Assembly: GCA_026004015.1 (NCBI GenBank)
Contig: BPIH01000005.1
Span: forward strand, 31,598 to 95,597
Direction: 5' to 3'
DNA length: 64,000 nt
Origin: Chloroflexota bacterium
Lineage (GTDB): Bacteria; Chloroflexota; Limnocylindria; Limnocylindrales; CSP1-4
The notes beneath the pieces were generated by a model, which ran no database searches, was not told the origin of the DNA, and worked only from the letters and a program-made list of their open reading frames with translations. Position 1 is the stretch's first letter; each line of letters begins with the position of its first letter. The position numbers were made by a program, and so were the translations under genes. Positions 4,711 to 55,341 of the stretch are shown piece by piece.

Positions 4711-4792
4711 CTTGAACACGCCGGCCGACCACTGGCGGCGGGGCCAGAGCCGCCCGCGGCTTCGGTTCGGTCAGTGTGTGAGTCGGTCCCGG

Positions 4793-5941: not shown

Positions 5942-6044
5942 GCTCCAAGGGTAGCGCGGCTTGGGCCGGGCGCTGGCTCGGCGGAAGGCCCGCTTGTCGG
6001 CGCTGCCGGTCGGGGGCTACGGCCCGCCCGGGCCGGTGCTCTCT

Positions 6045-6167
6045 GAACACCAAAACGCCCCCGCGCCCACCGCCCGGTCCCCCCATATCGGCCGATTGGT
6101 GCTCGACGAGCAACAACGGCGCCGAACCGGTCGCTGCCATTACCCCTGCACCCCCGCTTTGGTGTTC
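6045..6167. repeat. 123-nt element with 10-nt perfect terminal inverted repeats, copy 2 (inverted relative to copy 1)
   Basis: GAACACCAAA at 6045..6054 and TTTGGTGTTC at 6158..6167. Same 123-nt length as copy 1. The internal block GGCGCCGAA(C/T)CGG(T/C)CG lies at the same offset (73) when copy 1 is reverse-complemented. Confidence 0.7.
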
Positions 6168-6311
6168 TCTGCCCACGACCCGGCTGCGACCCGGCGCCGG
6201 GACGCCGGGAGGCTTACGGCTCTGGCTCGCCTTGACAGGCGCGCGACGGGCGGCCGATCCTTCCGGCGGTCGACGGTCCCGCCCGCCGAGCCGTCGGCCT
6301 GCCGGCGGCGG

Positions 6312-13043: not shown

Positions 13044-13151
13044 GCCGGCCGATGGTACCGAGCCATGGTGACCAACCGGGCCGCGAGATACCGCGAGGCC
13101 CGGGCCAGACGACCCGGGCCTCACGGCGGGGAGGAGGAGGACGCGTTCGTG

Positions 13152-13370
13152 CTAGGACGACGGGGAAGCCTCCGCCGACGGCGAAGCCTCAGGCGTCGGC
13201 GCCTCCGTCGGGGTCGGCGAGACCTCGAGGCTCGGTGCGGTGCTCGGCGACTCGATGGGCGCATCCGAGGCGCCCGGGCTGCTCACCGGCGGCGTCGGGC
13301 TGGCACCCGGACCGCAGGCGGTGAGGACGGCGCTGGCAGTGACGATGACGACGGCGAGGCGTCGCTTCAT
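13152..13370 (-). CDS. small Pro/Ser/Thr-rich lipoprotein
   Basis: MKRRLAVVIVTASAVLTAC has a lipobox (LTAC). Strong SD GGAAGGAGG lies 6 nt upstream of ATG 13370. The mature part is low-complexity. Confidence 0.6.
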   Translation of the reverse strand: MKRRLAVVIVTASAVLTACGPGASPTPPVSSPGASDAPIESPSTAPSLEVSPTPTEAPTPEASPSAEASPSS

Positions 13371-13402
13371 GACTGACCTCCTTCCTTGTGGGCGACGGTG
13401 CT

Positions 13403-13513
13403 CCGGCAGATCTGGGAGCCGAGTCAACCGGACTGATGCGTGACGCTGACGGCGAGCGTGACGCTCGTCGTGCCGCCGGCAGATCTCGGAGCCGAGTCGA
13501 CCGGACTGATGCG
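13403..13513. repeat. two 38-nt direct repeats (73-nt period) in the divergent lipoprotein / two-component promoter region
   Basis: CCGGCAGATCTGGGAGCCGAGTCAACCGGACTGATGCG at 13403..13440 and the same with 2 mismatches at 13476..13513. GTGACGCT is also duplicated in the spacer. Confidence 0.7.
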
Positions 13514-13700
13514 GCTCCCTCTGGAGCCGACACGCGCGAGGGTCGAAAGAACCCCGGCGCCGGCGAAGGAGGATGGCAGGCCGTCGATGAAGGAACGATG
13601 AAGCGGAGGCTCCGGGCAGCAACGGTTACGAAATCTGACCCATGTCGCAACCGCCGGCCAACCGGAGGCCCCTAGGATGGGCGTCCCGGAGGTGATCGAC

Positions 13701-14425
13701 ATGCGCCTGCTCGTCGCCGAAGACGACCGACGCCTCGCTGGTCTCCTCCGGCGCGGTCTCGAGGGGGAGGGCTACGCCGTCGACGTCGTCGGGACGGCGG
13801 AGGAGACTCGCTGGCTGGCGGCGGACATTCCCTACGACACGATCGTCCTCGACGTCATGCTCCCGATGGGGACGGCTTCGACGTCTGCCGGGACCTCCGA
13901 GCCCGGGGACGCTGGTCGCCGATTCTCTTCTTGACCGCCCGGGGCGGCGTCGCCGACCGGGTTCGGGGCCTCGACGGCGGCGGCGACGACTACCTCGTGA
14001 AGCCCTTCGAGTGGGAGGAGCTCCTGGCTCGAATCCGCGCGCTCGTTCGCCGCGGCGCGCACCCGCGACCGGCGAAGATCGAGCTCGGCGCCTTCGTGCT
14101 GGACCCGGCGAGCCGGGAGGTCCGGATCGCCGGCCAGCGGATCGACCTCTCCGCCCGCGAGTTTGCCATCCTCGAGGTCCTCGCCCGCCGCCCGAACGAG
14201 GTCCTCTCGCGGGCCGACATCCGGGAGGCCGTCTGGGACTGGGCCTTCGAGGGCCGCTCGAACGTCGTCGACGTCCACGTGGCCTCCCTTCGCCGGAAGC
14301 TCGGCGGTCAGCCTGACGGACCGCGAATCGAGACCGTCCGAGGCATCGGGTACGTCCTCCGGACCGGGCCCTCCGCTGACTCGGGGGCATCGGGCACGCC
14401 CCGGATTCCCGACGCCGACCGGTGA
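13701..14425 (+). pseudogene. OmpR-family response regulator, one frame change at about 13863-13866
   Basis: MRLLVAEDD...DTIVLDVMLP (frame of ORF 13677..13934) continues as DGDGFDVCRDLRARGRWSPILFLTARGGVADRVRGLDGGGDDYLVKPF...winged helix (frame of ORF 13931..14425). SD GGAGGTG precedes ATG 13701. Confidence 0.8.
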
Positions 14426-15756
14426 GCCTGCGAACCCGGCTCACCCTCTGGCTGGCCCTGGCTGCTACGAGCCTCGTCGTCGCCGCCGGAACCCTCGTCT
14501 GGGTCGCCGTCGGTCAGCAGCTCCGGCTCGGCCTCGACGAGACCCTCCGGCTTCACGCCGAGAGCGTCGCGACGGCCCTCGAGGCCGACCCGAACGCCCC
14601 GATCGACAACCTTCCGAGCGGCCGGCCGGCGGTCTTCACGATCCTCTACGGCGCCCGACGGCGTGCCGATCCGGAGAACGGGGATGGCGGCCGAGCTGCC
14701 GGCGGTGCCGCCGCCGGGCCGTTCGGAGCTCGTCGTCGAGAACGATGCGCTACGTCTTCTATGCGGTCGACGGCGCGGCGGGCCGGGTCGTGACCGGCGC
14801 GACCACGGCGGGTATCGAAGCGACCCAGGTGGCAGTGACCCAGGCCCTCGTGGCGGTCGGGCTCTTCGTCGCCGTGGTTGCTGTCGGCGGGAGCTGGTGG
14901 CTCGTGGGGCGGGTCCTGGCGCCCTTGAGCGCGCTCGCTGCCGAGCTCGAGACCATCGAGCCCGACGAGCTCGATCGACCCTTCGTCGGTCGTCCGGGTC
15001 GGGACGAGGTCGGCCGCCTGACCCGGTCGACCGCCGACCTCCTCGCCCGCCTCGACGAGGACCGACGCCGCCCAGCAGGCCTTCGTCGCTGCGGCCTCCC
15101 ACGACCTTCGAACGCCGCTCGCTGCCCTCCGGACCGAGATCGAGCTCGCCCTCCGGGGCCGGTCCGACGCGGGGCGCCTCCGTCGGGCCATCGAAGCGGC
15201 CCACGGCGACGGCCGTCCGGCTCGGGCAGCTCGCCGACGGGCTCCTCGCCCTGGCCGAGGCCGAACCGGGAGGCCGGCCCCTGACCCGAGGCCGGGTCAG
15301 CGTCGAGGCGCTCCTCGAGGCGGCCGTCGACGACTGCCGGTCGCTGGCCGACGGCAAGGGGGGTGGCGATCGAGGTCGCGGCCCCCGCGACCGAGGTCGC
15401 CGTGGATCGGGTCCGCCTCGAGCAGGCGCTCCGGAACATCGTCGCCAACGCGGTTCGGTACTCCCCACGAGGGGGCCACGGTCCGGATCGTGGCCGAGGT
15501 CGTGACCCGCCGCCTGCGGCCCGGCCTGCCGGGTCGGCCCTGGCTCCGGGTCGGTGTCGTCGACCGCGGACCGGGAGTGGATCCGGCGGTCGAGGGCCGT
15601 CTCTTCCTCCCGTTCGTCCGGCGCCACGGCGACGGCGAGGGGACCGGGCTCGGCCTCGCCATCGCCGCCGCCGCGGTCCGCGCCCACGGCGGTGAGATCG
15701 GCTATCGACCGGCGGCAGGGGGCGGCTCGGAGTTCTGGCTCGCGGTCCCTTGCTAG
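14422..15756 (+). pseudogene. sensor histidine kinase (TM-HAMP-HisKA-HATPase), about 6 frame changes
   Basis: The GTG overlaps the response-regulator stop. Recognisable pieces lie in successive frames: MSLRTRLTLWLALAATSLVV..., PDGVPIRRTGMAAELP..., RYVFYAVDG...HAMP, QQAFVAAASHDLRTPL (H-box), VRLGQLADGLLALAE..., VAIEVAAP...LEQALRNIVANAVRYSP, TVRIVAEV...DRGPGV...GTGLGLAIA. Junctions at about 14651, 14747, 15060, 15210, 15358-15363 (G6 run) and 15471-15477 (G5 run). Confidence 0.8.
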
Positions 15757-15889
15757 GTGACCGCCGGACGGCCCCGGGCTCTTACCTGGACTGGACAGCA
15801 GGCTCGGAGGGGGCTAGGCTCGGGTTCAGCGAGACGCAGGCATCGGCGACGCAACTTTGAGCGGGTGGGTCACGGCCAGGGAGGTCCGG

Positions 15890-16201
15890 GTGGTTGCCAG
15901 AAACACAGCCATTGCCGGGGCCGAGCCGGCGGCGACCCTCGCGGCCGAGGGGCTCGGGCGCCGCTATCGGCGATGGGGTCCCTGGGCCTTGCGGGACGTC
16001 ACGCTCGGGATTCCGGCCGGTTCGGTCACGGCCCTCGTCGGACCGAACGGCGCGGGCAAGAAAACACTCCTCCGGTGCTGGATGGGTTTCGAGCGCCCCG
16101 ACGCGGGCCGGGTCCGCATACGCTTGGCCTTCGGCGATGGCGTCCGCCGCGACCGCATCCGTCTGAGCCGTCCCACGTCACCCGCTGCGTCCCGGGACTG
16201 A
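15890..16201 (+). pseudogene. ABC-transporter ATP-binding protein, N-terminal fragment only (Walker A retained)
   Basis: LAAEGLGRRYRR...LRDVTLGIPAGSVTALVGPNGAGKKTLLRCWMGFERPDAGRVRI, after which family-like sequence stops near 16120. The rest of the ORF reads through the leader element. No Q-loop, signature or Walker B motif was found downstream. Confidence 0.6.
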
Positions 16202-16215
16202 TCGGCTCCGGGCGT
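16125..16215 (+). promoter_or_regulatory. leader element R1: crcB/fluoride-riboswitch-like core (degenerate copy) upstream of the MFS gene
   Basis: CGGCGAUGGCGUCCGCCG (16132..16149) matches the conserved P1 core GGCGAUGGnGUUCGCC. CUGAUCGGCUCC lies at 16198..16209. The pseudoknot (GGCGU vs GCUCC) has one mismatch. The linker and P2 are poorly defined. Confidence 0.35.
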
Positions 16216-16250
16216 GATCGCACCGTGAGGCACCGTGAAGGGAGGTGCAC

Positions 16251-17561
16251 GTGAGCGTGGCTGACGGGTCGGACGGACCGGACCACGGGAGTGAGACGAG
16301 GGTCGTGGACGCCCGTCGAACCGGAACCGGATCGGGGACGACGGCGGCGCCGGTCCCCTCGGCCGAGGCCGCTTCGGGCTGGCTGACCCCCGGCGTTCGG
16401 GGCATCGGGGCGGCCAGCCTCCTCTCGGACCTCGGGCACGAAGTCCCGACGACGCTCCTGCCGGCCTTCCTCTCGACCGTCCTCGGCGCGCCGGCGGCCG
16501 CCCTCGGCCTCATCGAGGGGCTCGCCGACGGCCTCTCGGGGCTGGCCAAGATCATCGGCGGTCCATTCGCCGACGAACCCGGACGGCGCCGCTCGATCGC
16601 CGTCGGCGGCTACACGGTCACTGCGGTCCTGTCGGCGGCGATCGGGCTCGCCACGGCGGCCTGGCAGGTCGGCGTTCTGCGGACCGGCGCCTGGGTCGCC
16701 CGCGGTCTCCGGACCCCCGCCCGGAACGCCCTCCTCGCCGATGCCGTGGACCGGCGAGCCTACGGGCGGGCCTACGGCTTCGAGCGGGCGATGGACAACC
16801 TCGGGGCCGTCCTCGGGCCGCTGGCGGCCCTCGCCCTCGTCAGCCTCCTCGACGTCCGGACGGCAATCCTCGTCTCGGTCGTGCCGGGCCTCCTCGCCGG
16901 CCTCGCCATCGTCTACGCCATCCGCCACATCCGCGCCGTGCCCCTCGCGACCCCCCGTCCCCGACGTCGCGTCCTCGATCTTCCCGTCCGCTCCCTCCTC
17001 CGGGGGCACCTCCGTCGCGCCTTCCTCGTCGTCGGGGCCTTCGAGGTCGGCAACGTCGCGGCGACCCTCCTCATCCTCCGCGCGACGGAGGTCTTTACTG
17101 CGGCCGGACGAGCCGACGCCGCCCAGCTCGCCGTCACCCTCTACGTCGCCTACAACCTCGCCGGCACCCTGGCGAGCGTCCCCTTCGGTCGCCTCGGCGA
17201 CGCGCGGGGCTTCACCGCGCCGCTCCTCGCCGGGTTCGCCCTCTTCGCCGGGGCGTACGGCGCCTTCGCCCTCGGACCGACCGACCCGCTCGTCCTGGGC
17301 GCTGCGTTCGTGGCCGCCGGCGTGGGCATCGGGATCGTCGAAACGGGCGAGCATGCGATCGTCGCCTCGGCCGCCCCGCCGGAAGCGCGAGGCTCGGCCT
17401 TCGGGCTCCTCGCGGGCGCCCAGAGCTTCGGCGACTTCGCCGCCAGCGGGATCGTCGGCATCCTCTGGAGCCTCGCCGGGGGGACGGTCGCCTTCGCGTA
17501 CGCCGCCACCTGGATGCTCATCGCCCTCCTTCTCGCCGCCATCGTCCGGCCGGGCCGCTGA
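16251..17561 (+). CDS. MFS transporter
   Basis: Intact ORF (track 16245..17561) with about 12 predicted TM segments. The GTG at 16251 follows the SD GGGAGGTG. Confidence 0.8.
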   Translation: MSVADGSDGPDHGSETRVVDARRTGTGSGTTAAPVPSAEAASGWLTPGVRGIGAASLLSDLGHEVPTTLLPAFLSTVLGAPAAALGLIEGLADGLSGLAKIIGGPFADEPGRRRSIAVGGYTVTAVLSAAIGLATAAWQVGVLRTGAWVARGLRTPARNALLADAVDRRAYGRAYGFERAMDNLGAVLGPLAALALVSLLDVRTAILVSVVPGLLAGLAIVYAIRHIRAVPLATPRPRRRVLDLPVRSLLRGHLRRAFLVVGAFEVGNVAATLLILRATEVFTAAGRADAAQLAVTLYVAYNLAGTLASVPFGRLGDARGFTAPLLAGFALFAGAYGAFALGPTDPLVLGAAFVAAGVGIGIVETGEHAIVASAAPPEARGSAFGLLAGAQSFGDFAASGIVGILWSLAGGTVAFAYAATWMLIALLLAAIVRPGR

Positions 17562-45614: not shown

Positions 45615-45686
45615 GATGCAATCTTATAGCGACTTTCTGTGCGCCGCGCAACCCCTTCCGACGCACATCCGGCCACCCATCCCACG

Positions 45687-46517
45687 ATGAGCCCCCGACG
45701 CCGCCGACCCCACACCTGGCGGCCCGAGCGCTTCATGGTCGTCGTCGCTCACCCGGACGACGCCGACTTCGGGCCCGCGGCGACGGCCGCCCGCTGGATC
45801 GACGAAGGCTCGACGGGCTGGCTCGTCTGCTGCACGAGCGGTGACGCCGGCGGCGACGACCCGGATCTCGATCCCCTCGAGCTGGCGGCGACCCGGGAGG
45901 CGGAGCAGCGCCAGGCAGCGGCCGTCGTCGGCTATGCCGGCGTCAGCTTCCTTCACCAGCCCGACGGCGCCCTCGCCAACGACCTCCCGCTCCGGGAGCT
46001 CCTCGTCCGCGAGATCCGCACCTTCCGGCCCGACGCGGTCCTGGCCACCGATCCCGAGGTCGTCTTCTACCGAGGCGGCGGGGTGAACCACGCCGACCAT
46101 CGCGCGGCGGGCCTGGCGGCCACCGACGCCGTCTATCCGGCGGCCCGCAACCCGATGGCCTTCCCGCACCTCGCCCGTGCCGGCCTCGCCCCCCACGTCG
46201 TCCGCCGGCTCTACCTCTTCTGGCCGAACTCGCCGAACGCCTGGATCGACGTGACGACGACCCTCGAGCGGAAGGTCGCCGCCCTCCGGGCCCACGTCAG
46301 CCAGATCCGGCAGCCGGATCGGCTCGAGGAGCGGATCCGGCGCTGGGCGGCCGAGGAGGGGCGGGTCATCGGGGTGCCGGCCGCGGAGGCCTTCCGGGTC
46401 GTCGTCATCGAGGAGGACGACGAGGAGGGGCCGACGGGGGAGCTTCCCGAGGACGACCCGGCCGCGGATGGCCCCGGGGAGCGCTCGGGTTCCCGGAGCG
46501 AGCTCCGTTCTCGCTAG
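45687..46517 (+). CDS. PIG-L/LmbE-family N-acetylglucosaminyl deacetylase (MshB/Mca-like)
   Basis: VVVAHPDDADFG...HADHRAAG motifs. Confidence 0.8.
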   Translation: MSPRRRRPHTWRPERFMVVVAHPDDADFGPAATAARWIDEGSTGWLVCCTSGDAGGDDPDLDPLELAATREAEQRQAAAVVGYAGVSFLHQPDGALANDLPLRELLVREIRTFRPDAVLATDPEVVFYRGGGVNHADHRAAGLAATDAVYPAARNPMAFPHLARAGLAPHVVRRLYLFWPNSPNAWIDVTTTLERKVAALRAHVSQIRQPDRLEERIRRWAAEEGRVIGVPAAEAFRVVVIEEDDEEGPTGELPEDDPAADGPGERSGSRSELRSR

Positions 46518-48458
46518 ACGAGCTCGATGAGGAGGGGGCGGACCCGGCCCCAGGCGTTCCAGAGGTCGGCCAGCTCGTCGGCCCGCTGACCGAGCAGCTC
46601 GACGAGCTCGCTCAGGGTCAGGCCACCGGCCTCCCGGGTGAGGAACTCGTCGGCGGCGATGGTCACCCGGGCGAAGAGGTCCGGGAGCTCGGCCTCGCTC
46701 GGCCAGGTTCGGATCCGCATCGGGTCGAGCCCGGCGTAGCCGACGGCGAGGGAGAGGTCCCGCTGGCTCGGCACCCGACCGTCGGCGAAGCCGCCGAGGC
46801 CGTCGAAGCGGTAGCCGAGGGCGGCCAGGGCGGCGGCGATGTCGCGACACTCGGCCGGTGTGAAGCGGCCCCAGAAGGGGTCGTCCTCGGGGAAGTCGAG
46901 GGCGTTCGCCTCGATGGCCCGGGCGATGACGGCGTCGACGAGATCGGCGAGGAGGAGCCGCCAGCGCCGTGCCTCGCCTTCGTCCGAGCCGGCGAGCCGG
47001 GCGACGAGCCGCTCGAGGACGGCGTGGTCGCCGCGGAGGAGGCGCAGGATCGCCGCTTCGCGGCCCCGCTCGACGGTGAGGGCCGCCGTGTCGTCCTCGA
47101 AGGCGAAATCGGGGCCGGCGGCGGCTCGGGGGCGCCCGCCGCGGGAGCCGGTCCGGCCGGCCCGGGCGCGCCCTCGGGCGTCGGTGCGGAGGTCGGGGCG
47201 GGCGGCGCGTGTCGAGGGCGGCGGCCGTCCTCCTCGCACTCGGCGAGGGCCTGGCGGGCGGCGAGGCAGGCCTCCTCGGCCGACTCGGCGAGGATCCGGG
47301 CGGCATCGGCCTCCGTCGCCAGGCGCTCGATCTCCGGGCCGAGCTCGGCGAGCGTCTGCGCCAGGCGGGCCGCTTCGCGAGAGGCAGCCGCCGCCTCGCG
47401 ATTGATCCGGTTGATCTCGTCGAGCCAGGCTCGGGCCGCCGCTTCCGCCTCGGCCCGACTCCGCGCCGACGCTCGGGCCACCCGGAACGCGTCCTGGGCC
47501 GCCTCCTTGGCCGCCCGAACCGCCCGAGGGTCGGCCCGGCTCGCGGCCGCCTCCGCCCTGGCCGCGGCATCGTCGTAGGCTCTCCGGGCCGCCCGGAGCC
47601 GCTCGGCCGCTTCGGCCGCCTCGGCCCGGGCTCGGGCGGCGACCTCGCACCGCTCTCGGGCGAGGAGGCGAGGGCCCGAGCACGGATCGAGGGCGCTCGC
47701 GTCCGCCGAAGCGCTGTCCGGGAGCCGATCGGGCTCGGCCGCCGGCGCCGGGCCGCCGTCGGCCCTCGCGGACGGTCCAGGTCCGCGTCGTGGGCCGGTG
47801 CCGAACCGAGGGACCGTGCCGAGGCGAGGGAGCCCCGACCGCTGGCCGGGACGCCGGCGGGCTCGCCCTCGGAACGGGGCGTCGGCCTGGCGCCGGCGGT
47901 CGCGACCATCGCCGGCGGAGTCGACGGCCTGCCCGGAGACCCGAGGACCTCGGCGAGGAGGGGATCGCGTCCGGCCTCGACGGGGATCGCCCTCCAGCCG
48001 ACGGTCGCTCGGCAGACGGCTCGTCGGCAGACGGCGCATCGGCGACCGGCTTCCCTGGAGATCGGTCCGAACGCTCGTTCGGATCGTGGCGCTGGTTCGG
48101 GCATCTCCTCGGCCGCAGCGGCTGCTCCGCGGGTCCCGCGTCCGTTGCCGCCGGAGGCCGCGGGAAGCCCGGCCTCGCCGCTCTGTCGGGCGGACTCGCG
48201 GGCCGAGCGGAGCTCCGGGTCCCGGTCCGCTCCGAGCTCGGCGGGATCGGCCGGGCCGCCGCGGGCCGGCGGGATGTCGAGGGGAGCAAGGTACGTCGCC
48301 AGCGTGGCGGGGCGGCGTGCGGCCGGGGCCGGGGCGACGGTGACGCGGATCTCCCGGGCCGGTCGGCTCCGGCCACGGGAGGCGACCGCCGCCGCGGCAC
48401 CGCCGGTGGCGCCGAGGAGGAGGCCGAAGGCTAGGAACGCGATCTCGCTCGCGGTCAC
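46514..48458 (-). pseudogene. membrane-anchored coiled-coil protein with a conserved-looking C-terminal domain, at least 2 frame changes
   Basis: N-terminus VTASEIAFLAFGLLLGATGGAAAAVA (GTG 48458, SD AGAGGA). The Ala/Arg/Glu coiled coil (ARARAEAAEAAERLRAARRAYDD...LAECEE) lies in a second frame. DFAFEDDTAALTVERG...FTPAECRDIAAALAALGYRFDG...LIELV* lies in a third frame (junction about 47110). No family recognised. Confidence 0.5.
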
Positions 48459-48740
48459 ACGATCCTCTGCGTGGTGCGGCGACGGGGATCGCCGCTGCCG
48501 AGCGTAGCTGCACGCCGCTCGGGCGTCAAATCGACCGCCGCCCGGGGCGCTACCGACGGCAGCCGTGGCGCGGGCCGCCGCCGCGGTGCCCGGTCCCGAG
48601 CAGCCATGTGGTCCCGCCCAGCGGCCCGTTTTGCGCCGATCGGCGGGCCGATGGTAGATTCCCTTCTCGCGTTCCCGCGCGGCCCCCGCCGCTCTCTCCA
48701 CGCCCCCGAGCCCGGTACAGAGGAAGGGACTGACCGAGTC

Positions 48741-50574
48741 GTGGCCATCGAGCCGCAGGAGTTTCTCGTCCAACCGGTGGACGCCTCCTGGCTCCAGTGC
48801 AACATCGAGTGCCAGGAAGGTTGCCCGGTCGGGACGAACTGCCGGGGCTACCTGAACCTCGCCGCCGAAGGGCGGTTCGAGGAGGGCTACATCCTGTCCC
48901 GGGAACCGAACCCGGTGGCGGCGATGTGCGCCTACGTCTGCTCGGCGCCCTGCGAGCGAGCCTGCCGCCGCGGCGACATCGACCGGCCCCTCGCCATCCG
49001 GGCCATGAAGCGCTTCCTCGTCGAGTGGCACGCCGCCTCGGGGATCCCCGACGTCATGCCCGACATCACCCCTCGCCCCGAGCGCGTCGCCGTCATCGGC
49101 GCCGGCCCGGCCGGCCTCTCGGTCGCCCGGGAGCTCGCCGTCAAGGGCTACCAGGTCACCGTCTACGACGCCCTCCCCTACGGCGGCGGGACGATGCTCA
49201 TCGGCGTCCCCGCCTTCCGCCTGCCCCGGGAAGCGATCGAGATGGACGTCCGCCTCGTCGAGCGGCTCGGGGTCCGCTTCGTCTACAACACGACCGTCGG
49301 CGTCGACGTCGCCTTCGAGGACCTCCAGGCCGAGTACGACGCCATCGCCATCTGCGCCGGGGCGATGAACCCCGTCGTCCTCGACGTTCCGGGGGCGGAC
49401 CTCGAGGGCGTCGAGTACGGCGTCGACTTCATGCGGAAGGCGAACCTCGGCGAGCCGCCTCGAGGTCGGCCGGGACGTCGTCGTCATCGGCGGCGGCTAC
49501 ACGGCCATGGACTGCTCGCGGACGAGCCTCCGCTACGGCGCCGAGCGGGTCGCCATCGTCTACCGCCGGACCCGCTCCGAGCTCGTCGTCGACGAGGAAG
49601 AGCTCGGCGAGACCGAGCGCGAGGGCGTCCGGATGGAGTTCCTCGCCAGCCCCCTCGAGATCATCGGCGAGAACGGCCGGGTGAAGGCCGTCCGCTTCAT
49701 CCGGAACAAGCTCGGCGAGCCCGACGCCTCGGGTCGTCGCTCGCCGATCCCGATCCCGGGCTCGGAGTTCGTCATTCCGGCCGACACCGTCATTCCCGCC
49801 GTCGGCCAGGCGGCCGACCTCTCCTTCCTCCCGGCCGAGACGAACTTCGAGATCGGCCGCGGCCGGATCCGGGTCGACCCGGCGACGTACGCCACGAACG
49901 TTCGCGGCGTCTTTGCCTGCGGCGACTTCGTCACCGGGCCGACGACCCTCATCGAGGCCGCCGGGCACGGCAAGAAGTGCGCCTACGCCATCGACCGCTA
50001 CCTCTCCGGCCAGACCGAGGTGACGGTCACCCCCAACGTCAAGATCACGAGCTCGTGGCGCCACGAGATGCCCGAGTTCTACGACGTCCTGCCCCGCCAG
50101 CACGTCCCGATGGCGCCGGTCGCAGCCCGCTTCCCGTCGACCGAGCCGACGCTGAACTTCACGACCCCCGTCGAGCTCGGCTACACGACGACCGAGGCCG
50201 TCGCCGAGGCGACCCGCTGCCTCATGTGCAACTACAACATCTGGTTCGATCCCTTCCGGTGCGTCCTCTGCGGGGCCTGCGCCGACGTCTGTCCGGAAGG
50301 CGTCATCCACATGGTCGACATCAACCAGCTCAAGAGCGAGGGCTACCTGCCCGAGCTGGAAGAGGCGTACGGCTGGGAGAACGGGGCAGCCATGGTCCTC
50401 GACGAGGAGCGCTGCATCCGCTGCGCTCTCTGCGTGAAGCGCTGCCCCTTCGATGCCATTACGATGGAGCGGTTCGAGCTCCAGGAGGTTTCGAGCGACG
50501 GGCGGCTCTACAAGGAGTCGTACCGTGACGGTCAGCTTGCCGGTCTCGCCGGCGTGGCAGGAGGAGCACGGTGA
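48741..50574 (+). pseudogene. GltD/NfnB-like NAD(P)H-dependent flavo-iron-sulfur oxidoreductase with a C-terminal 2x[4Fe-4S] ferredoxin domain, one frame change at about 49455
   Basis: N-terminal Cys clusters (CNIECQEGCPVGTNC; CAYVCSAPCERAC). VAVIGAGPAGLSVAREL...YGGGTMLIGVPAFRLP. Then, in the next frame, VVVIGGGYTAMDCSRT...FACGD. CVLCGACADVCP and CIRCALCVKRCP. The stop overlaps the cytochrome b6 GTG (GTGA). Confidence 0.75.
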
Positions 50575-51299
50575 GTTTCCTCGAGCGGGTGGATCAGACC
50601 ATTCGCCGGAGCGCCGTCTGGCGCTCGTTGTTCCGCCAGCCGTACCCGAACGACGAGCGGTCGCGGGCCTACGCGGTGATGAACAACGTCTTCCTCCACA
50701 TCCACCCGGTCCGCGTCCGCCAGCACGCCGTGAAGTTCGCCTACACCTTCTGCCTCGGCGGGCTGAGCTTCTTCCTCTTCCTCGTCCTGACCGTGACGGG
50801 CGTCTACCTCATGTTCTACTACGTCCCCTCGGCGACCCAGGCCTACTCGAACATCCTCGCCATCCAGAGCGAGGTGACCTTCGGGCTCCTGACCCGCAAC
50901 ATCCACCGCTGGGGCGCCCACCTCATGGTCTTCTTCGTCTTCCTCCACATGATGCGGGTCTTCTACCACGGCGCCTACAAGCCGCCCCGTGAGTTCAACT
51001 GGGTCGTCGGCGTCGTCCTCCTCTTCCTGACGATCATGCTCAGCTTCACCGGCTATCTCCTGCCCTGGGACCAGATCGCCTACTGGGCGATCACCATCGG
51101 CACGAACATGGGCGGCTACGCCCCGCTCTTCAACACGCCGGCGAAGCTCATCCTCCTCGGCGGGATCGAAGTCGGCCAGAACACGCTCCTCCGCTTCTAC
51201 GTCCTCCATATCATGGTCTTCCCGCTCCTGGCGGCGATCTTCCTGGCCGTCCACTTCTGGCGCATCCGGAAGGACGGCGGGATCTCGGGCCCGCTATGA
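50571..51299 (+). CDS. cytochrome b6-type subunit (N-terminal 4-helix cytochrome b)
   Basis: Intact 242 aa. Haem-ligand regions [14 protein letters not shown] and [23 protein letters not shown]. Confidence 0.9.
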
Positions 51300-51388
51300 G
51301 CCGCCGAACCGGGTCAGCGTTGCCGTCTCCACCCCCGATCCCCGAGGCACGACCGAGCACCAACCGATGATCCCTGCGAGCGCCTGCC

Positions 51389-51991
51389 ATGGCTGACACG
51401 TCCACTCCACCCGAGCGACGGGTCGTCCTCCCCGTCGATCCGACCCGTCGGACCGAGATCGACAAGCAGCGGGTCCCGATGTCGGCCCGCCCCTACCGCC
51501 TCCTCGCCCTCGTCAAGCAGGATGCCGTCGTCCGGGTCCAGAAGGAACCCGACGACACGGTCATGACCTGGCCGCACCTTCTCTCCATCGAGTTCCTGGC
51601 GGCGGCGATGATGAGCATCTTCCTGCTCCTCCTCGGGCTCTTCGTCAACGCCCCCCTCGAGGAGCTCGCCAACGGGAACGTGACGCCGGCCGTGGCGAAG
51701 GCGCCCTGGTACTTCCTCGGTCTCCAGGAGCTCCTCGCCTACTTCCACCCGACCGTCGCCGGCGTCCTCGTGCCGACCTTCGTCCTCGTCGGGGCGGCGG
51801 TCATCCCCTACGTCGATCGGGGGAACCCGACGGCGACCCGGCCCTCGGAGCGGAAGACGGCCGTCGTCCTCTTCACCCTCTTCTGCATCCTGGGCCTCGT
51901 CCTGACCTTCGTCGGCATCTTCTTCCGGGGCCCCGGCTACGGGTTCGCCATCCCGTACGTGAACACCCCCGGCCTCCACTTCGCCCTCTGA
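51389..51991 (+). CDS. cytochrome b C-terminal domain / subunit IV (PetD-like)
   Basis: Intact 200 aa with a PEWY-equivalent motif (AKAPWYFLGLQELL) and 3 TM helices. Confidence 0.85.
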   Translation: MADTSTPPERRVVLPVDPTRRTEIDKQRVPMSARPYRLLALVKQDAVVRVQKEPDDTVMTWPHLLSIEFLAAAMMSIFLLLLGLFVNAPLEELANGNVTPAVAKAPWYFLGLQELLAYFHPTVAGVLVPTFVLVGAAVIPYVDRGNPTATRPSERKTAVVLFTLFCILGLVLTFVGIFFRGPGYGFAIPYVNTPGLHFAL

Positions 51992-52016
51992 GCCCGATCC
52001 GAGCGACTGACCGAGC

Positions 52017-52694
52017 ATGAGCAACTACCACGTCGAGCCGGCCCACCGCCCGCAGGCGCTGAGCACCCAGGCCCTGAAGGCCCTTCGGCGGGAGCCCGTC
52101 GAGGGGATGTCCCGCCGACAGCTCCTCCGCCTCTCCCTCGGGGCCGGCATGCTCCTCTGGCTGACGGAGGTGACGGCGGGCACCATCGGCTTCATCTGGC
52201 CGGCCCTCCGGAGCGGGTTCGGGGCGAAGATCCGGATCGGCACCCTCGACGACGTCAAGCTCGCCAACGCGAACCTCCCCATCGCCGAGGGCTTCCCGGC
52301 CTACTTCTCCGAGGCACGGGCCTTCGTCGTCCTCGTCGACCCGTCGCGCCAGGAGTTCCTGCCCGGGGAGGATCGGACCGGCGAGGGCACGGCCCTCAAC
52401 GTCCGGGCCCTCTACCAGCGCTGTCCGCACCTCGGCTGCAAGCCGAACCCGTGCCAGCGGAACTTCTGGCTCGAGTGCCCGTGCCATGGCTCGCGCTTCG
52501 ATCGGCTCGGGATCAAGGCAGCGGGTGCCCAGTTCGGGCCGGCGCCGCGGAGCATGGACCGCTTCGCCATCGAGGTCGATGCGTCGGGCGCCCTGACCAT
52601 CGATACCTCTCGGATCACCCTCGGCCCGCTGCCGATCGCCGTCGGCCAGCCGGGCATCATCCCGCCGAAGTCGCCGACGGGCTGCATCGACTGA
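52017..52694 (+). CDS. Rieske [2Fe-2S] subunit with Tat signal
   Basis: SRRQLLRLSLGAG (twin-arginine), CPHLGC ... CPCHGS cluster boxes. Confidence 0.9.
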   Translation: MSNYHVEPAHRPQALSTQALKALRREPVEGMSRRQLLRLSLGAGMLLWLTEVTAGTIGFIWPALRSGFGAKIRIGTLDDVKLANANLPIAEGFPAYFSEARAFVVLVDPSRQEFLPGEDRTGEGTALNVRALYQRCPHLGCKPNPCQRNFWLECPCHGSRFDRLGIKAAGAQFGPAPRSMDRFAIEVDASGALTIDTSRITLGPLPIAVGQPGIIPPKSPTGCID

Positions 52695-52725
52695 GCCGGC
52701 GACGAGATTCGACGCGAGGAGATCG

Positions 52726-53811
52726 ATGACCGACCAGCCTGACCGCGGGCCGGACTCGCGCCTGCCCGTCCCCCGGCCGCCGGCCGAGCCGGTCTCGCCG
52801 GACCGCTTCGCCGCCCCGCCTTCGGCGCGCCGCTTCGAGCTGACCCCGGAACGGGCGGCCCAGATCGTCCGTCAGTCGTCGAGCGCCCGCTTCGTCGGCT
52901 TCCTCGCCGTCGGGGTCGTCGTCCTCTTCGTCATCGTCTACTACTTCTACGAGCTCGGCTTCCCGGGTGGGCTGACCCAGAGCCGGCTGGCGGCCGAAAC
53001 CGAGGCCCAGCAGGTGACGGCCGTCGAACGGGGCTACAACATCTACCAGGCGAACTGCGCCCGCTGCCACGGTGCGAACGGCGAGGGTGGGATCGGCCCG
53101 AAGCTGAACGACCAGAGCAAGCTCTTCTGGCACCTCCGCGAGGACTACCTGCGGAACATCCTCGAGGTCGGTGGCCGCTACGCCTGCGGCGACCCGAACA
53201 GCCTCATGCCGGTCTGGTCCGATCGGAACGGCGGGCCCCTGAACTACAAGGCCATCGAGGACCTCATCGCCTTCCTCCGGGCGACGAACGAGCGCGAGTA
53301 CACCGTCCGGGATCCGGAGCTCTTCGAGCCCGAGATCGACCCCGAGACCGGGCGCCCGAAGACCTTCACCGGCTGGCGGGATCCGAACTGGCGGCCCGAA
53401 CCCGGGGCGACGCCCTATCCGGCCTGCTGGAAGGACGAGTTCACCTCCCCGGCCTCGCCAGCTCCCGGCCTCGCCGGCGCCTCCCCCTCCGCTCCGGCCG
53501 CCTCGCCCGGGGCCTCGGCCCCGGCCGGGGTCGTCCTCGAGATCAGCGCCCAGAACATCGCCTTCGACAAGACCGAGCTCCGGGCCCCGGCGAACACCCC
53601 CTTCCAGATCCGCTTCACGAACAACGACGCCGGCATCCCCCACAACGTCGCCATCCACGAGGGGAGCCCGACCGGACCCGAGGTCTGGCGGGGCGAGATC
53701 TTCAACGGCGTCGAGACCCGGGTCTACGACGTCCCCGCCCTGCCGGCCGGGACGTACGGCTTCATCTGCACCGTCCACCCGAACATGACGGGCACCCTCA
53801 TCGTCGAATGA
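52726..53811 (+). CDS. membrane-anchored monohaem cytochrome c fused to a type-1 copper (cupredoxin) domain
   Basis: TM FVGFLAVGVVVLFVIVYYF. CARCH haem motif with a downstream LMPVW Met region. Pro/Ala/Ser linker. Cupredoxin ligands HNVAIH ... CTVHPNM. SD GAGGAG before the ATG. Confidence 0.8.
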   Translation: MTDQPDRGPDSRLPVPRPPAEPVSPDRFAAPPSARRFELTPERAAQIVRQSSSARFVGFLAVGVVVLFVIVYYFYELGFPGGLTQSRLAAETEAQQVTAVERGYNIYQANCARCHGANGEGGIGPKLNDQSKLFWHLREDYLRNILEVGGRYACGDPNSLMPVWSDRNGGPLNYKAIEDLIAFLRATNEREYTVRDPELFEPEIDPETGRPKTFTGWRDPNWRPEPGATPYPACWKDEFTSPASPAPGLAGASPSAPAASPGASAPAGVVLEISAQNIAFDKTELRAPANTPFQIRFTNNDAGIPHNVAIHEGSPTGPEVWRGEIFNGVETRVYDVPALPAGTYGFICTVHPNMTGTLIVE

Positions 53812-53881: not shown

Positions 53882-55341
53882 GTGACCGCAACGAGGATGG
53901 AGGAGATGGCTCAGGCTCAGCAGCTCGGCCCCGGCAAGATCCGAAAGCGTGCGCTCTTCGGGTTGCTCGACGCCGACGGCTGGTCGTGGGCGTCGATCAA
54001 GGCCTTCTTCTGGTTCATCGTCATCATCCTCATGCTCGGCTACCTCCCCGACCGGGCCTACTACTTCACGGTCTTTCCGACCATCGACCTCGGGGTCCTC
54101 GTCTGGTCGCCCGTGAACCTCTGTCCCCCGGAGAACGGGGAGAACATGCCCTGTCCGGTTCCCGCCGGGGCACCGCTGCCGTGGCAGCCCTCACCGGCCG
54201 AGCTCGGCCTGCCCGAGCCGCGGATCGGCGGCGCCGTCGTCCAGGTCGGGACCCAGCTCCTCTACATCGGCGGCTCGAACGGCTCGGCGGCGACCTCGAC
54301 GGTCTACGTCGCCAGGCTCGTCGACGGCAGCACCTTCGATCGCTGGTCCGAGGGTCCGGCCCTCCCCGAGCCGCGGGCGAACGCCGCCGTCGCCTTCTTC
54401 GGCGGCTCGGTCTACGTCATCGGCGGCACCGATGCCTCGGGCGCGCCGACCTCGACGACCTTCGTCCTCACCCCAGACCTCGCGACCGGCGAGCTCGGCA
54501 CCTGGACGACGAACGAGACCCTCGCCCTGCCAGAACCGCGGACCGAAGCCGCTGTCGTCGCCGCGCCGACGGGTCTCATCCTCGTCGGCGGGAGCGGGCC
54601 GAGCGGCCCGGTCGACACGGTCTGGCGGTCGGCCCTCGAGCGGAACGCCCTCGCTGCCTGGCAGCCCCAGGCCCCCTGGCTCGGCCCCAGTCGGGCGGCG
54701 TGGCGATGCTCGCCGGCGACTACCTCTGGTACGTCGGCGGGCGCGACGCCAGCGGCCCGGTCGGGGCGGTCCAGCGCGGCGAGTTCGGCACCGACGAGGC
54801 GACGGCCGGGAGCGTCGTTCGGTGGGGGATCCGGAACGACGTCAACCTGCCCGCGCCTCGAGCCGAGCTGACGGGCTTCACGACGAACGGCGTCCTCTAC
54901 GCCATCGGTGGCTTCGACGGCCAGGCGCCGCGGGGCGAGGTCTACTGGGCGATCCCGGACAGCCGGGGCGAGATCGGCGAGTGGAAGCACCTCGCCCAGA
55001 GCGACCTGCCGGCCGTCGGGCTGGCCGGGGCGGCCTCGGTCGTCTCCGGCTCCCACGCCTTCGTCATCGGTGGCCGAACGGCCGACGGGCTCATCGGGGC
55101 CGCCGCCCGGACGAACCTGGCGCCCCAGCCCCCCTTCTTCCAGCTCGGCCTCTTCGGGATCGTCGTGCCGGCCCTCAAGATCGAGGGCGAGATCGGCCAG
55201 CAGCTCGGCTACCTGAACGCGGCCGGTGTCGGAACGCTGAACTTCATCATCCTCGTCCTCATCGGCTGGGCCTACGCCCATCCGGACCGGGCCCGGGAGA
55301 TCGCCCGGCGGGTCCTGCGCGAGGGCGGCTCGGCGGGGTAG
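53882..55341 (+). pseudogene. Kelch-repeat beta-propeller membrane protein, one frame change at a C5 run (about 54672-54676)
   Basis: N-terminal TM (IKAFFWFIVIILMLGYL). Repeated ...LYIGG/VYVIGG/LILVGG/LWYVGG/LYAIGG/AFVIGG blades. C-terminal TM. The sequence moves from the frame of ORF 53882..54871 to that of ORF 53986..55341 (...AWQPQAP / LARPQSGGVAMLAGDYLWYVGG). Confidence 0.7.

Follow-up and report, generated by a model that had tools for sequence, protein, structure and literature searches.

A cluster of five closely spaced genes in a hot-spring Chloroflexota bacterium places an NADP(H)-type iron–sulfur flavoprotein directly ahead of Rieske/cytochrome b genes, raising the question of whether this flavoprotein belongs to the complex encoded behind it and, if so, which way it passes electrons. 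The cluster occupies 48741..53811 on the + strand of the window (the whole 64,000-nucleotide stretch of DNA analyzed here), where open reading frames and Pfam domains place all five genes, and it is a genuine respiratory gene set. Its features, together with the gene that follows, are:

48741..50574, + strand: NADP(H)-type FeS flavoprotein, 610 aa once one base is removed; Fer4_20, Pyr_redox_2 and two Fer4 domains (Pfam)
49458..49458, + strand: extra single nucleotide that breaks the flavoprotein frame (comparison with relatives L001–L004, tblastn)
50571..51299, + strand: cytochrome b6, 242 aa; Pfam Cytochrome_B, 1.8e-46
51389..51991, + strand: subunit IV, 200 aa; Pfam Cytochrom_B_C, NCBIfam ExtQ, motif and hydropathy
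52017..52694, + strand: Rieske [2Fe-2S] protein, 225 aa; Pfam Rieske, motifs
52726..53811, + strand: fusion of a membrane-anchored monoheme cytochrome c and a type-1 (blue) copper domain; Pfam Cytochrom_C/Cytochrome_CBB3 and Cupredoxin_1/Copper-bind
53882..55341, + strand: Kelch-repeat membrane protein; Pfam Kelch, frame break at ~54675

Pfam and motif reading bear out what an earlier note on this DNA described: the genes present, their domains and cofactor motifs, and the cytochrome c–cupredoxin fusion. We interpret the cluster as encoding a b6-type Rieske/cytochrome b complex, of the kind known as the "APWY clade" or "subfamily G", with an NADP(H) flavoprotein attached on its cytoplasmic side, and assign this reading, mechanism included, a probability of about 0.55.

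The flavoprotein and its broken reading frame

Judged by its motifs, the flavoprotein carries an FAD site (GAGPAG, 49098–49115, read from the sequence), an NAD(P)H site (GGGYTA at ~49489–49506 and YRR at 49561–49569) and four putative FeS clusters, two in an N-terminal GltD/NfnB-type 2x[4Fe-4S] domain with eight cysteines and two in a C-terminal 2x[4Fe-4S] ferredoxin domain (CVLCGACADVCP, 50260–50295; CIRCALCVKRCP, 50413–50448). YRR after the second Rossmann strand is a pattern that we take to mark NADPH-dependent GltD/NfnB proteins. Because its sequence contains neither a TM-like segment nor a signal peptide, we place the protein in the cytoplasm. Its best PDB match is NfnA (9n5u_A, 6e-113, residues 19–566), followed by NfnABC (9bov_A/9bp5) and 8oh5_C and after those by NfnB and GltD, while its top NCBIfam match, PRK12771, falls under that model's cutoff, as do its scores against all curated NCBIfam models, GltA/GltD included. 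The Brocadia flavoprotein, 41% identical over residues 7–582, gives the same NCBIfam ranking. With NfnB/GltD/SudA and the Bfu-type NfnABC/StnABC modules the protein shares its N-terminal 430 residues, comprising Fer4_20, FAD and the NADPH Rossmann fold, and its ferredoxin-domain extension resembles those of 9n5u_A, 9bov_A and 8oh5_C. At 610 aa it stands between NfnB/GltD (~470 aa) and the Bfu subunits (963–1178 aa).

The window encodes this protein in two frames, residues 1–239 in frame 0 (48741–49457) and residues 240–610 in frame +1 (49459–50571), and tblastn divides its orthologue at residues 239/240. At the break the window reads GAGCCGCCTCGAG, i.e., GAGCC[G]CCTCGAG, where L004 has GAGCC-CCTCGAG and L001–L003 have GAGCCG-CTGACC. 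One reading is that the flavoprotein is truly a pseudogene here, or is made by a +1 programmed frameshift, leaving the operon to specify a plain b6-type complex without it; the extra base is, after all, present in the deposited sequence, and the window has no full-length open reading frame. However, coding constraint is obvious in both halves, since deleting the base yields a 610-aa protein that differs from the intact relative P0001 only at five internal residues and its GTG start, and intact 610-aa relatives in fourteen clusters (P0001–P0014) share 97–99% identity at 100% coverage. Frame breaks also recur nearby: tblastn against intact orthologues finds them in an AhpC-like gene, in the gene for a 642-aa protein (two) and in the Kelch gene, and by eye a LysR gene near the locus is broken as well. 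The total of at least six breaks in ~16 kb, at least five of them outside the flavoprotein gene, is the pattern of assembly error, and the sequence is likely a metaFlye assembly of PacBio reads. No slippery or stall site is recognizable at CCG-CCU-CGA, and the relatives need no shift. With near-identical relatives intact and neighboring genes broken too, we attribute the extra base at 49458 most probably to faulty assembly and consider a pseudogene or programmed frameshift highly unlikely. The full-length product that the earlier note had assumed across a break at ~49455 is thereby probably retained.

Linkage to cytochrome b genes across phyla

At 50571–50574, GTGA joins the flavoprotein stop to the GTG start of cytochrome b6, with GGAGGAG just upstream. 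This overlap, to which the earlier note had drawn attention, is real, and all 4 nt are kept in L001–L005, whose flavoproteins share 85–99% identity with that of the window. The remaining gaps, from cytochrome b6 through the cytochrome c–copper gene, are 89, 25 and 31 nt. In a survey of 57 GTDB species-level loci whose homologue extends through the C-terminal ferredoxin domain, cytochrome b6 and subunit IV lie within ~1 kb of the flavoprotein in 43, mostly with a Rieske match too, and the linked loci, in several gene orders, carry no fewer than 11 phylum-level labels. Shorter homologues of GltD/NfnB length in the same survey showed no linkage to cytochrome b (0/23). Outside the class, the nearest homologues (33–54% identity; Acidobacteriota, Brocadia, Verrucomicrobiota, Nitrospirae and others) themselves adjoin Rieske/cytochrome b6/subunit IV genes, so the refuting case that the earlier note had set, soluble GltD/NfnB partners never linked to such genes, does not arise. 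In a rough NJ tree the linked flavoproteins group together, with the Limnocylindria group in a subtree that also holds Brocadia L077 and the unlinked PVC proteins L048/L051. Since the linkage is kept across so many phylum-level labels and gene orders, it points to a functional tie, and judging from these neighborhoods the flavoprotein is not the chance neighbor that the earlier note had likewise argued against.

Conserved synteny and the anammox homologues suggest that the flavoprotein is, very probably, a true subunit. It could instead be an independent soluble enzyme, an NADPH-dependent FeS flavoprotein like GltD, NfnB or SudA, whose partner is ferredoxin or some other protein and which merely shares the operon. 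Its catalytic core is plainly GltD/NfnB-like, and two results count against a subunit role: 14 of the 57 full-length homologues lie apart from cytochrome b genes (two were not judgeable, being at contig ends; the L051 gene is surrounded by unrelated genes), and a search for fusions of the flavoprotein to cytochrome b or Rieske proteins found none. Against an independent enzyme stand the breadth of the linkage, the separate tree clusters of linked proteins, the conserved stop/start overlap, and the scores under every curated GltA/GltD cutoff. Partners of the gltB, nfnA or sudB type are absent among the genes neighboring the flavoprotein, which is linked instead to membrane cytochrome genes. Furthermore, complexome profiling (de Almeida 2016, as cited in PMC5600118) found anammox cytochrome b and oxidoreductase subunits in the same complexes, at high levels, so that these complexes are more than the proposals for which the earlier note had taken them. 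Altogether we regard an independent enzyme as very improbable, slightly more so than a pseudogene.

Membrane core and outer-side partner

By its motifs, the membrane core consists of cytochrome b6 with hemes bL and bH, subunit IV and a Tat-exported Rieske protein. Cytochrome b6 has the heme b ligand pairs H112/H126 (H-x13-H) and H213/H228 (H-x14-H) and, for heme c_n, a CxGG motif (CLGG, 50751–50762); among solved structures chloroplast b6 is nearest (1e-53). Against NCBIfam ExtP it scores 297 bits, above the equivalog cutoff of 290, and we take Geobacter ExtP to be a deltaproteobacterial member of the subfamily G/APWY clade. A ~58-residue N-terminal extension, unalignable to b6, contains His43 (50697–50699), which is conserved in 48/48 flavoprotein-linked cytochrome b sequences. 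The c_n cysteine occurs in merely 20 of the 48, so an electron wire cannot rely on c_n universally. In AF3 models of Kuenenia Kuste4571, His43 is the ligand of an extra heme; the window's His43 is probably its equivalent, judging from residue numbering and the aligned Brocadia sequence, Kuenenia being outside the alignment. Subunit IV has the Qo motif APWY (51701–51712) and three TM-like segments by hydropathy.

The Rieske protein has a Tat motif (RRQLL, 52113–52127) and the cluster boxes CPHLGC (52422–52439) and CPCHGSRF (52476–52499). Its best PDB matches, 9rk4_A and 9rk3_A, are two Kuenenia proteins (Kuste4569, Kustd1480), and its second box carries the same second-sphere Ser/Phe pair as Kustd1480, measured at +335 mV (PMC12954380).

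On the outer side, motifs and domain matches identify the partner as an anchored monoheme cytochrome c to which a blue-copper domain resembling auracyanin and amicyanin is tethered: one TM-like segment at ~residues 51–83, heme motif CARCH (53056–53070), and CTVHPNM (53767–53787) in a domain that matches auracyanin A and amicyanin. CTVHPNM is a single-Cys type-1 copper site, which rules out CuA. The protein is 100% identical to NCBI KatS3mg065_0983, and the fusion was found solely in close Limnocylindria loci (L001, L005–L009, L011). In L001, COX1 and COX3 genes directly follow the cytochrome c–copper gene, which suggests that the high-potential branch ends at O2. A Kelch gene lies immediately downstream in L005–L008, L011 and L016; the intact 482-aa orthologue in L005 begins 4 nt past the cytochrome c–copper gene, and the window's copy, which tblastn shows to be split, may be a sixth co-transcribed gene.

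Electron flow and relation to known complexes

Synteny and the anammox homologues suggest that a four-cluster wire would join FAD to the n-side hemes of cytochrome b6, possibly via an extra heme that two invariant His43 residues would ligate across the dimer interface. In the least certain part of this reading, menaquinol (whose use by the host lineage we assume) would be oxidized at the Qo site and its two electrons separated. The downhill electron would pass from Rieske through cytochrome c and copper to a terminal oxidase and O2, and the low-potential electron from bL through bH and c_n to the 4x[4Fe-4S] wire and FAD, where NADP+ would be reduced; an ordinary Q cycle may persist as an alternative outlet. 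Conserved synteny, the GTGA overlap, 41% identity to the Brocadia protein, the Kuenenia-like Rieske protein and His43 in 48/48 sequences are points in favor of such a bifurcating subunit. We estimate that a sole complex III sending all low-potential electrons to NAD(P)+ alongside a pumping complex I would need more than the available free energy, so NADPH formation could in that case take only part of the electrons, or take them only under some conditions. The NADP+-reducing direction is accordingly put forward tentatively, at somewhat less than even odds.

Electrons might also run the other way, with NAD(P)H donating through the FeS wire to heme c_n/bH and either quinone being reduced at the n-side (Qi) or the Q cycle receiving its "second electron" from this source. 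The complex would then be an NAD(P)H:quinone or NAD(P)H:cytochrome c oxidoreductase, akin to the role proposed for chloroplast b6f-bound ferredoxin:NADP+ reductase. Flow from NAD(P)H (~−320 mV) to menaquinone (~−75 mV) is thermodynamically easy, the anatomy of a wired subunit backs it equally, and oxidation of NAD(P)H is normal in an apparently aerobic heterotroph with an oxidase beside the operon in a relative. The Ser-containing Rieske box, if as oxidizing as that of Kustd1480, together with the assumed menaquinone, would nonetheless make the low-potential branch unusually reducing, which NAD(P)H oxidation does not need, and the non-carboxylate APWY Qo motif marks a non-standard complex. Literature cited in PMC5600118 reports FNR to be a subunit of b6f, but the authors of PMC12954380 argue that NAD(P)H oxidation by this route would waste much energy where coupled NADH dehydrogenases exist. 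We consider this direction possible and rather unlikely.

The closest known system is that of anammox Kuenenia stuttgartiensis (Kuste4569–4574, Kustd1480–1485; Kartal et al. 2013; de Almeida 2016; PMC12954380), with which the cluster shares a split, CxGG-bearing cytochrome b6, a protein resembling subunit IV, a Rieske protein with the Ser/Phe pair of Kustd1480, the N-terminal His43, and a cytoplasmic flavoprotein of ~570–610 aa that has FAD and an NAD(P) site besides its four FeS motifs. The structural relatives used to place the Kuenenia clusters, NfnABC 9bp5 and FwdF 5t5i, are common to both. In contrast, the anammox outer partners are hexa-/octaheme cytochromes or an HAO-like protein, the flavoprotein gene here comes first and overlaps cytochrome b6, the host is a probably aerobic hot-spring bacterium without an anammoxosome, and subunit IV has three TM-like segments rather than the five of anammox models, a point against the proposed reading. 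Compared with cyanobacterial/chloroplast b6f and Firmicute b6c, the cluster shares the split b6/subunit IV, both histidine spacings and CxGG, and a copper protein as downstream carrier recalls plastocyanin; it lacks cytochrome f and PetG/L/M/N genes, has APWY in place of PEWY, adds the His43-bearing extension, and encodes its flavoprotein in the operon, whereas chloroplast FNR is just peripherally associated.

Motifs and similarity to members suggest membership of the APWY clade (Kao & Hunte 2014, PMC4122944, which explicitly includes Chloroflexi) and of subfamily G (Dibrova et al. 2013/2017), which share a short cytochrome b with CxGG, APWY in subunit IV and a co-occurring large NAD(P)-binding FeS oxidoreductase. 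Both studies report the association across a wider range of phyla than the anammox planctomycetes to which the earlier note had confined it, and quinol bifurcation with two exits, plausible here, is a hypothesis already published for anammox bacteria (Kartal et al.; PMC12954380). This kind of complex is thus already described from genomes, above all those of anammox bacteria, in which such complexes have been studied; the novelty first claimed was overstated. Dibrova et al. and Kao & Hunte do not describe the Limnocylindria operon, its cytochrome c–cupredoxin partner or the Kelch gene. What is new here is that partner and the apparently aerobic host, in which the complex, if our reading is true, would make NADPH directly out of the quinol pool.

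Gene content and reading frames of the operon

The five plus-strand genes at 48741-53811 encode a predicted b6-type Rieske/cytochrome b complex, with heme sites, a split subunit IV, Tat-Rieske boxes and a CxGG motif all present. The gene content, cofactor motifs and GTGA overlap recorded in the earlier note were all recovered from open reading frames (ORFs), Pfam searches and motif reading in this G+C-rich (~73%) window.

Genes of the operon and its 3′ neighbor, with Pfam domains for the operon genes
48741-50574, +: flavoprotein; Fer4_20, Pyr_redox_2 and two Fer4 domains
operon gene 2, +: cytochrome b6; Cytochrome_B (1.8e-46)
operon gene 3, +: subunit IV; Cytochrom_B_C
operon gene 4, +: Rieske protein; Rieske
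operon gene 5, +: cytochrome c-copper protein; Cytochrom_C/Cytochrome_CBB3 and Cupredoxin_1/Copper-bind
53882-55341 (15013-16461 in the close relative L005): Kelch-repeat membrane protein, directly after the cytochrome c-copper gene

The flavoprotein, which has no hydrophobic segment, carries GAGPAG and GGGYTA, with YRR after the latter, as well as eight N-terminal cysteines and a pair of C-x2-C-x2-C-x3-CP motifs. Cytochrome b6, which finds b6 at 1e-53 among solved structures, has bis-His heme sites at H112/H126 (H-x13-H, helix B) and H213/H228 (H-x14-H, helix D) and CLGG, the CxGG motif for covalent heme c_n, at residues 61-64. Subunit IV has three transmembrane-like segments and the Qo motif APWY at residues 105-108, and the Rieske protein has a Tat motif (RRQLL) and the cluster boxes CPHLGC and CPCHGSRF. 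The cytochrome c-copper protein has one transmembrane-like segment, one CARCH heme site and a type-1 C-x2-H-x2-M copper site. Because COX1 comes after this gene in a 98%-identical relative (L001), a CuA/COX2-like subunit was considered; it was ruled out by the single Cys of the copper site and by the best solved matches of the domain, which are auracyanin A and amicyanin.

The flavoprotein stop and the cytochrome b6 start overlap by 4 nt (GTGA at 50571-50574, with GGAGGAG in front), an overlap found again in 5/5 close contigs, and the other intergenic gaps are 89, 25 and 31 nt. In six Limnocylindria loci, as in the window, the Kelch gene lies directly 3′ of the cytochrome c-copper gene (gap of 4 nt in L005), and it may be a sixth operon gene. 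Its product has hydrophobic stretches close to both ends, and its sole NCBIfam matches are weak ones to mutarotase/epimerase families. A promoter scan of the window found no promoter, a result of little weight at 73% GC. A search for terminator-like hairpins gave five against 1.6 expected, and these were not taken as real because 4/5 fall within operon coding sequences. One hairpin of 7 pairs with a weak T tail (50604-50623) sits ~30 nt into the cytochrome b6 coding sequence, just past the flavoprotein overlap, and is probably meaningless at such G+C.

Upstream of the operon and divergent from it (46514-48460, minus strand; also in L001, L004 and L005) is a gene for an Ala/Arg/Pro-rich protein of ~615-642 aa with no Pfam match, well conserved in its C-terminal third and divergent in the remainder. 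A 1287-aa ORF (45624-49487, minus strand), antisense to PIG-L, to the gene for the 615-642 aa protein and to the flavoprotein start, was rejected as a gene; it is an artefact of the rarity of stop codons at high G+C.

As assembled, frame 0 of the flavoprotein gene extends to 49457, and the coding sequence resumes at 49459 in frame +1. Compared with the closest relative found (contig L004, 95% nucleotide identity across 12 kb), the window has one surplus base (GAGCCGCCTCGAG in the window, GAGCC-CCTCGAG in L004), and its removal gives a 610-aa flavoprotein that differs from the intact protein cluster P0001 at five internal residues and in its GTG start. Intact flavoproteins covering the full query length were found in fourteen protein clusters at 97-99% identity. 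Nearby genes are broken as well, with a total of at least six frame breaks in ~16 kb of the window.

Frame breaks in the window
~45250: AhpC-like gene, one break, relative to the intact orthologue
47100-47800, minus strand: 642-aa protein, two breaks, relative to the intact orthologue
49458, +: flavoprotein gene, one break
~54675: Kelch gene, one break, relative to the intact orthologue
~57450: LysR-type gene, apparently split, by inspection

The break in the flavoprotein gene is most likely an assembly error; the gene is unlikely to be a true pseudogene or to rely on programmed frameshifting. A programmed +1 frameshift at 49458 was specifically rejected, as relatives are unshifted, no slippery or stall site was recognized there and nearby genes are frame-broken too. 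The concern in the earlier note that a real break would leave no full-length protein is thus probably unfounded, given the intact relatives and the likewise broken adjoining genes. A GC3 frame plot hints at further frame breaks elsewhere in the window. The cytochrome c-copper protein is 100% identical to KatS3mg065_0983 (NCBI; Chloroflexota MAG). The tag "KatS3mg" apparently denotes a series of MAGs from the Katase hot spring (52 °C), for which PacBio reads were assembled with metaFlye (PMC9671151, where mg065 itself is absent). The window looks like an unpolished long-read assembly, and its ORF-based findings therefore call for care.

Linkage of the flavoprotein to Rieske/cytochrome b genes

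The flavoprotein family is large, with 7481 matches at E ≤ 1e-10 in a word-indexed search and 12449 at E ≤ 1e-10 in a library of 50%-identity representatives, where the Limnocylindria proteins form a single full-length cluster (82% identity) and the next full-length relatives are 37-49% identical. We aligned ten full-length relatives and then scanned one genome per GTDB species, which gave 80 loci, each of which was searched with the window's four membrane proteins. Cytochrome b6 and subunit IV genes occur within ~1 kb in 43/57 loci with a match that extends across the C-terminal ferredoxin domain (these 43 are hereafter linked loci), mostly with a Rieske match, and in 0/23 loci with a match of GltD/NfnB length only; two of the 14/57 unlinked full-length loci lie too near a contig edge to judge. 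The tie between flavoprotein and Rieske/cytochrome b genes is thus more than adjacency, and the main objection raised in the earlier note, that the nearest homologues might be soluble proteins never linked to such genes, fails. Linked loci are labeled Chloroflexota, Acidobacteriota, Planctomycetota (including Candidatus Brocadia), Verrucomicrobiota, Victivallales, Abyssobacteria, Zixibacteria, Eisenbacteria, Waddliaceae, Nitrospirae and Ignavibacteriota, and their gene order varies.

Gene orders in linked loci
Chloroflexota: flavoprotein-b6-IV-Rieske
Most other groups: flavoprotein-Rieske-b6-IV
Brocadia: Rieske-b6-flavoprotein-IV
One Planctomycetota MAG: Rieske-flavoprotein-b6-IV

In a rough neighbor-joining tree the linked flavoproteins cluster, and those of Limnocylindria fall in a subtree with the Brocadia protein (L077) and with L048 and L051, a pair of unlinked proteins from the PVC group. 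These two are among the closest non-Chloroflexota relatives of the Limnocylindria/Brocadia group and have no cytochrome b linkage, so the flavoprotein module can stand alone; the neighbors of the L051 gene (6878-8707) encode an integrase, a Kdo-transferase, a peroxiredoxin and an acyltransferase. Fusion of the flavoprotein to cytochrome b or Rieske was not seen: 0/7 longer representatives carry a cytochrome or Rieske domain, their extensions being response-regulator, 2Fe-2S, a duplicated flavoprotein module or N-terminal stretches without assignment.

The flavoprotein resembles GltD, NfnB and SudA in its Fer4_20 domain and FAD/NAD(P)H Pyr_redox_2 core. Its scores nevertheless lie under every curated GltA/GltD cutoff (TIGR01316, 350.5 vs. 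471.75; TIGR01318, 266 vs. 483; TIGR01317, 211 vs. 448), and no gltB, nfnA or sudB-type partner gene adjoins it in the window, L001, L004 or L005, where its neighbors are instead PIG-L, the 615-642 aa protein and cytochrome b6. Because of these scores, the absence of partner genes nearby and the cytochrome b linkage, the flavoprotein, judged by sequence, does not belong with the ordinary soluble GltD/NfnB partners. Its NAD(P)H site is probably specific for NADPH, going by the YRR after GGGYTA, a motif that we take from GltD and NfnB to point to NADPH. The best solved relatives of the flavoprotein are NfnA (9n5u), NfnABC (9bov/9bp5), StnC (8oh5) and FwdF (5t5i), and 9bp5 and 5t5i have also been used to place the FeS clusters in Kuste4570 and Kustd1483 of the Kuenenia anammox complexes (PMC12954380).

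Outer-side partners and relation to published complexes

The outer-side partners of the complex differ among lineages. A monoheme cytochrome c fused to a type-1 copper domain could be detected in close Limnocylindria loci only (L001, L005-L009 and L011); farther Limnocylindria loci encode cytochrome c with no cupredoxin detectable. The fusion family is common in metagenomes, with 2930 matches, and the whole top tier shares its architecture. In 13 linked loci (L017 at 4726-6929, L018, L019, L021-L023, L025, L029, L032, L038, L042, L076 and L084), from Acidobacteriota, Eisenbacteria, Zixibacteria and a Planctomycetota MAG, a separate secreted type-1 cupredoxin with a CarboxypepD_reg domain is encoded 5′ of the flavoprotein-Rieske-b6-IV cluster. 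Upstream of this cupredoxin most of the 13 encode a conserved protein of ~526 aa that matches no family and has one CxxCH and, apparently, a signal sequence at its N-terminus. Inspected by eye, the ~526-aa protein looks similar in layout to fused cytochrome-porins such as Cyc2.

In L001, COX1, COX3, a 64-aa protein and a 375-aa polytopic protein are encoded directly after the operon (13095-16806), and at the end of the last of these is another blue-copper domain (CTVHPNM), with 54% identity to that of the operon. No CuA-type COX2 is visible in the L001 locus, and the window has no COX genes. The position of the COX genes straight after the operon in L001 suggests an oxygen reductase as the end point of the high-potential branch.

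Complexes of this kind are already known from genomes, as a published class that is not biochemically characterized. The flavoprotein and APWY fit the traits of subfamily G and the APWY clade, namely the Qo motif that defines the latter (PMC4122944) and an adjacent gene for a large Cys-rich FeS oxidoreductase. The window's cytochrome b passes the NCBIfam equivalog for Geobacter ExtP (297 vs. a cutoff of 290), a score in favor of a place inside clade G/the APWY clade; unlike the window, the Geobacter ExtP cluster is cytochrome-rich and lacks a flavoprotein. The earlier note was right about the operon and its linkage and wrong to restrict such clusters to anammox bacteria, since Dibrova et al. 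report the association of cytochrome b with an oxidoreductase "in many other cases" outside planctomycetes (PMC5600118). That paper also cites de Almeida et al. (2016) for high expression of such complexes in Kuenenia, and anammox complexome data that bear on whether the flavoprotein associates with the membrane subunits (PMC5600118). In the literature we found no experimental structure (cryo-EM included) or assay of any flavoprotein-bearing Rieske/cytochrome b complex and nothing specific on Limnocylindria respiration, and as late as 2025 the role of the anammox complexes was described as unclear (PMC12954380). Because the genomic association is already in print, our results add a variant and a wider distribution, and no new principle: what is new is the cytochrome c-cupredoxin partner, the Kelch neighbor and a hot-spring Chloroflexota host that is apparently aerobic.

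The flavoprotein and Rieske protein of anammox complexes resemble those of the window. The Brocadia flavoprotein is 41% identical to the window's over residues 7-582 (E 3e-135) and has an equal NCBIfam ranking. Kuenenia Rieske proteins (9rk4 and 9rk3) are the best solved relatives of the window's, whose CPCHGSRF box has the Ser/Phe pair of Kustd1480, a Rieske protein measured at +335 mV (PMC12954380). AF3 models of the Kuenenia complexes place an extra b heme at the dimer interface on the n-side, with His43 of Kuste4571 as a ligand (PMC12954380). In an alignment of flavoprotein-linked cytochrome b sequences only, His43 is present in 48/48, as are the heme ligands H112 and H126, with H213 in 47/48 and H228 in 46/48. 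The window's His43 sits in an N-terminal region outside the alignment to chloroplast b6, and from its numbering and the aligned Brocadia sequence it would correspond to His43 of Kuste4571. The heme c_n cysteine (window residue 61, nt 50751-50753) is found in 20/48 of the linked sequences, those of Limnocylindria, Brocadia, a single Nitrospirae locus and a few others; Acidobacteriota and most other groups have Tyr, Gly, Trp or Phe at this position. Heme c_n would therefore be no universal entry point if the flavoprotein is wired to the hemes. The Kuenenia complexes differ from the window in having a multiheme cytochrome c partner, where the window has one CxxCH and a type-1 copper domain, and a five-helix subunit IV. 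Since partners differ among loci, the multiheme partner and five-helix subunit IV look like traits of anammox members rather than of the wider class.

Direction of electron flow

The sequence predicts a flavoprotein in the cytoplasm, with four FeS motifs, FAD and a site for NAD(P)H; a core of the b6 type; and an outer c-heme with copper. From synteny and the anammox data we infer that the flavoprotein would dock on the n-side, its cluster chain reaching the b6 hemes. As the direction of electron flow we tentatively favor the published bifurcation model, with a probability of roughly 0.45. Quinol would be oxidized at Qo, with one electron passing to Rieske, cytochrome c, copper and an oxidase, and the other passing through bL, bH, the FeS chain and FAD to NADP+. 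The Ser-containing Rieske box (of the same type as that of +335 mV Kustd1480, with use of menaquinone by this lineage assumed), the Qo motif APWY, which lacks a carboxylate, and the high-potential copper/c partner point to a non-standard and strongly reducing low-potential branch.

The rival explanation, which we consider less likely, is that NAD(P)H is the donor and its electrons enter at the n-side hemes or at the Qi site, as with FNR on b6f; this direction is thermodynamically easy and suits an aerobic heterotroph. A simple energy estimate of ours also limits the bifurcation model: if this were the sole complex III, all low-potential electrons went to NAD(P)+ and a pumping complex I oxidized it again, the charge moved would exceed what the span from NADH to cytochrome c permits. 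NADPH formation would then be only partial or conditional beside a normal Q cycle, or the NADPH would be spent in biosynthesis.

Whether the low-potential electron of a Rieske/cytochrome b complex goes to NAD(P)+ rather than quinone has been an open question since the anammox proposal. The window and the 43 linked loci place the same flavoprotein-bearing complex in common, probably aerobic lineages, several of which have cultured relatives among the Acidobacteriota. Simple outer-side partners (a blue-copper protein, alone or fused to a cytochrome c) make for more tractable test systems, and the conserved His43 of cytochrome b6 is a specific residue for mutation. This wide linkage and the invariant His43 ease testing of the bifurcation question, although the architecture itself will be recognizable to a specialist.

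One possibility, which we regard as doubtful, is an O2-linked bifurcating complex in which the drop from menaquinol to cytochrome c, copper and O2 lifts the second electron to NADP+, as a general respiratory strategy across at least 11 phylum-level groups. If so, NADPH would come straight from the quinone pool, without reverse electron flow driven by proton-motive force. The device would then be no anammox curiosity, and would be shared by aerobic Chloroflexota, Acidobacteriota, Verrucomicrobiota and at least eight more phylum-level groups.
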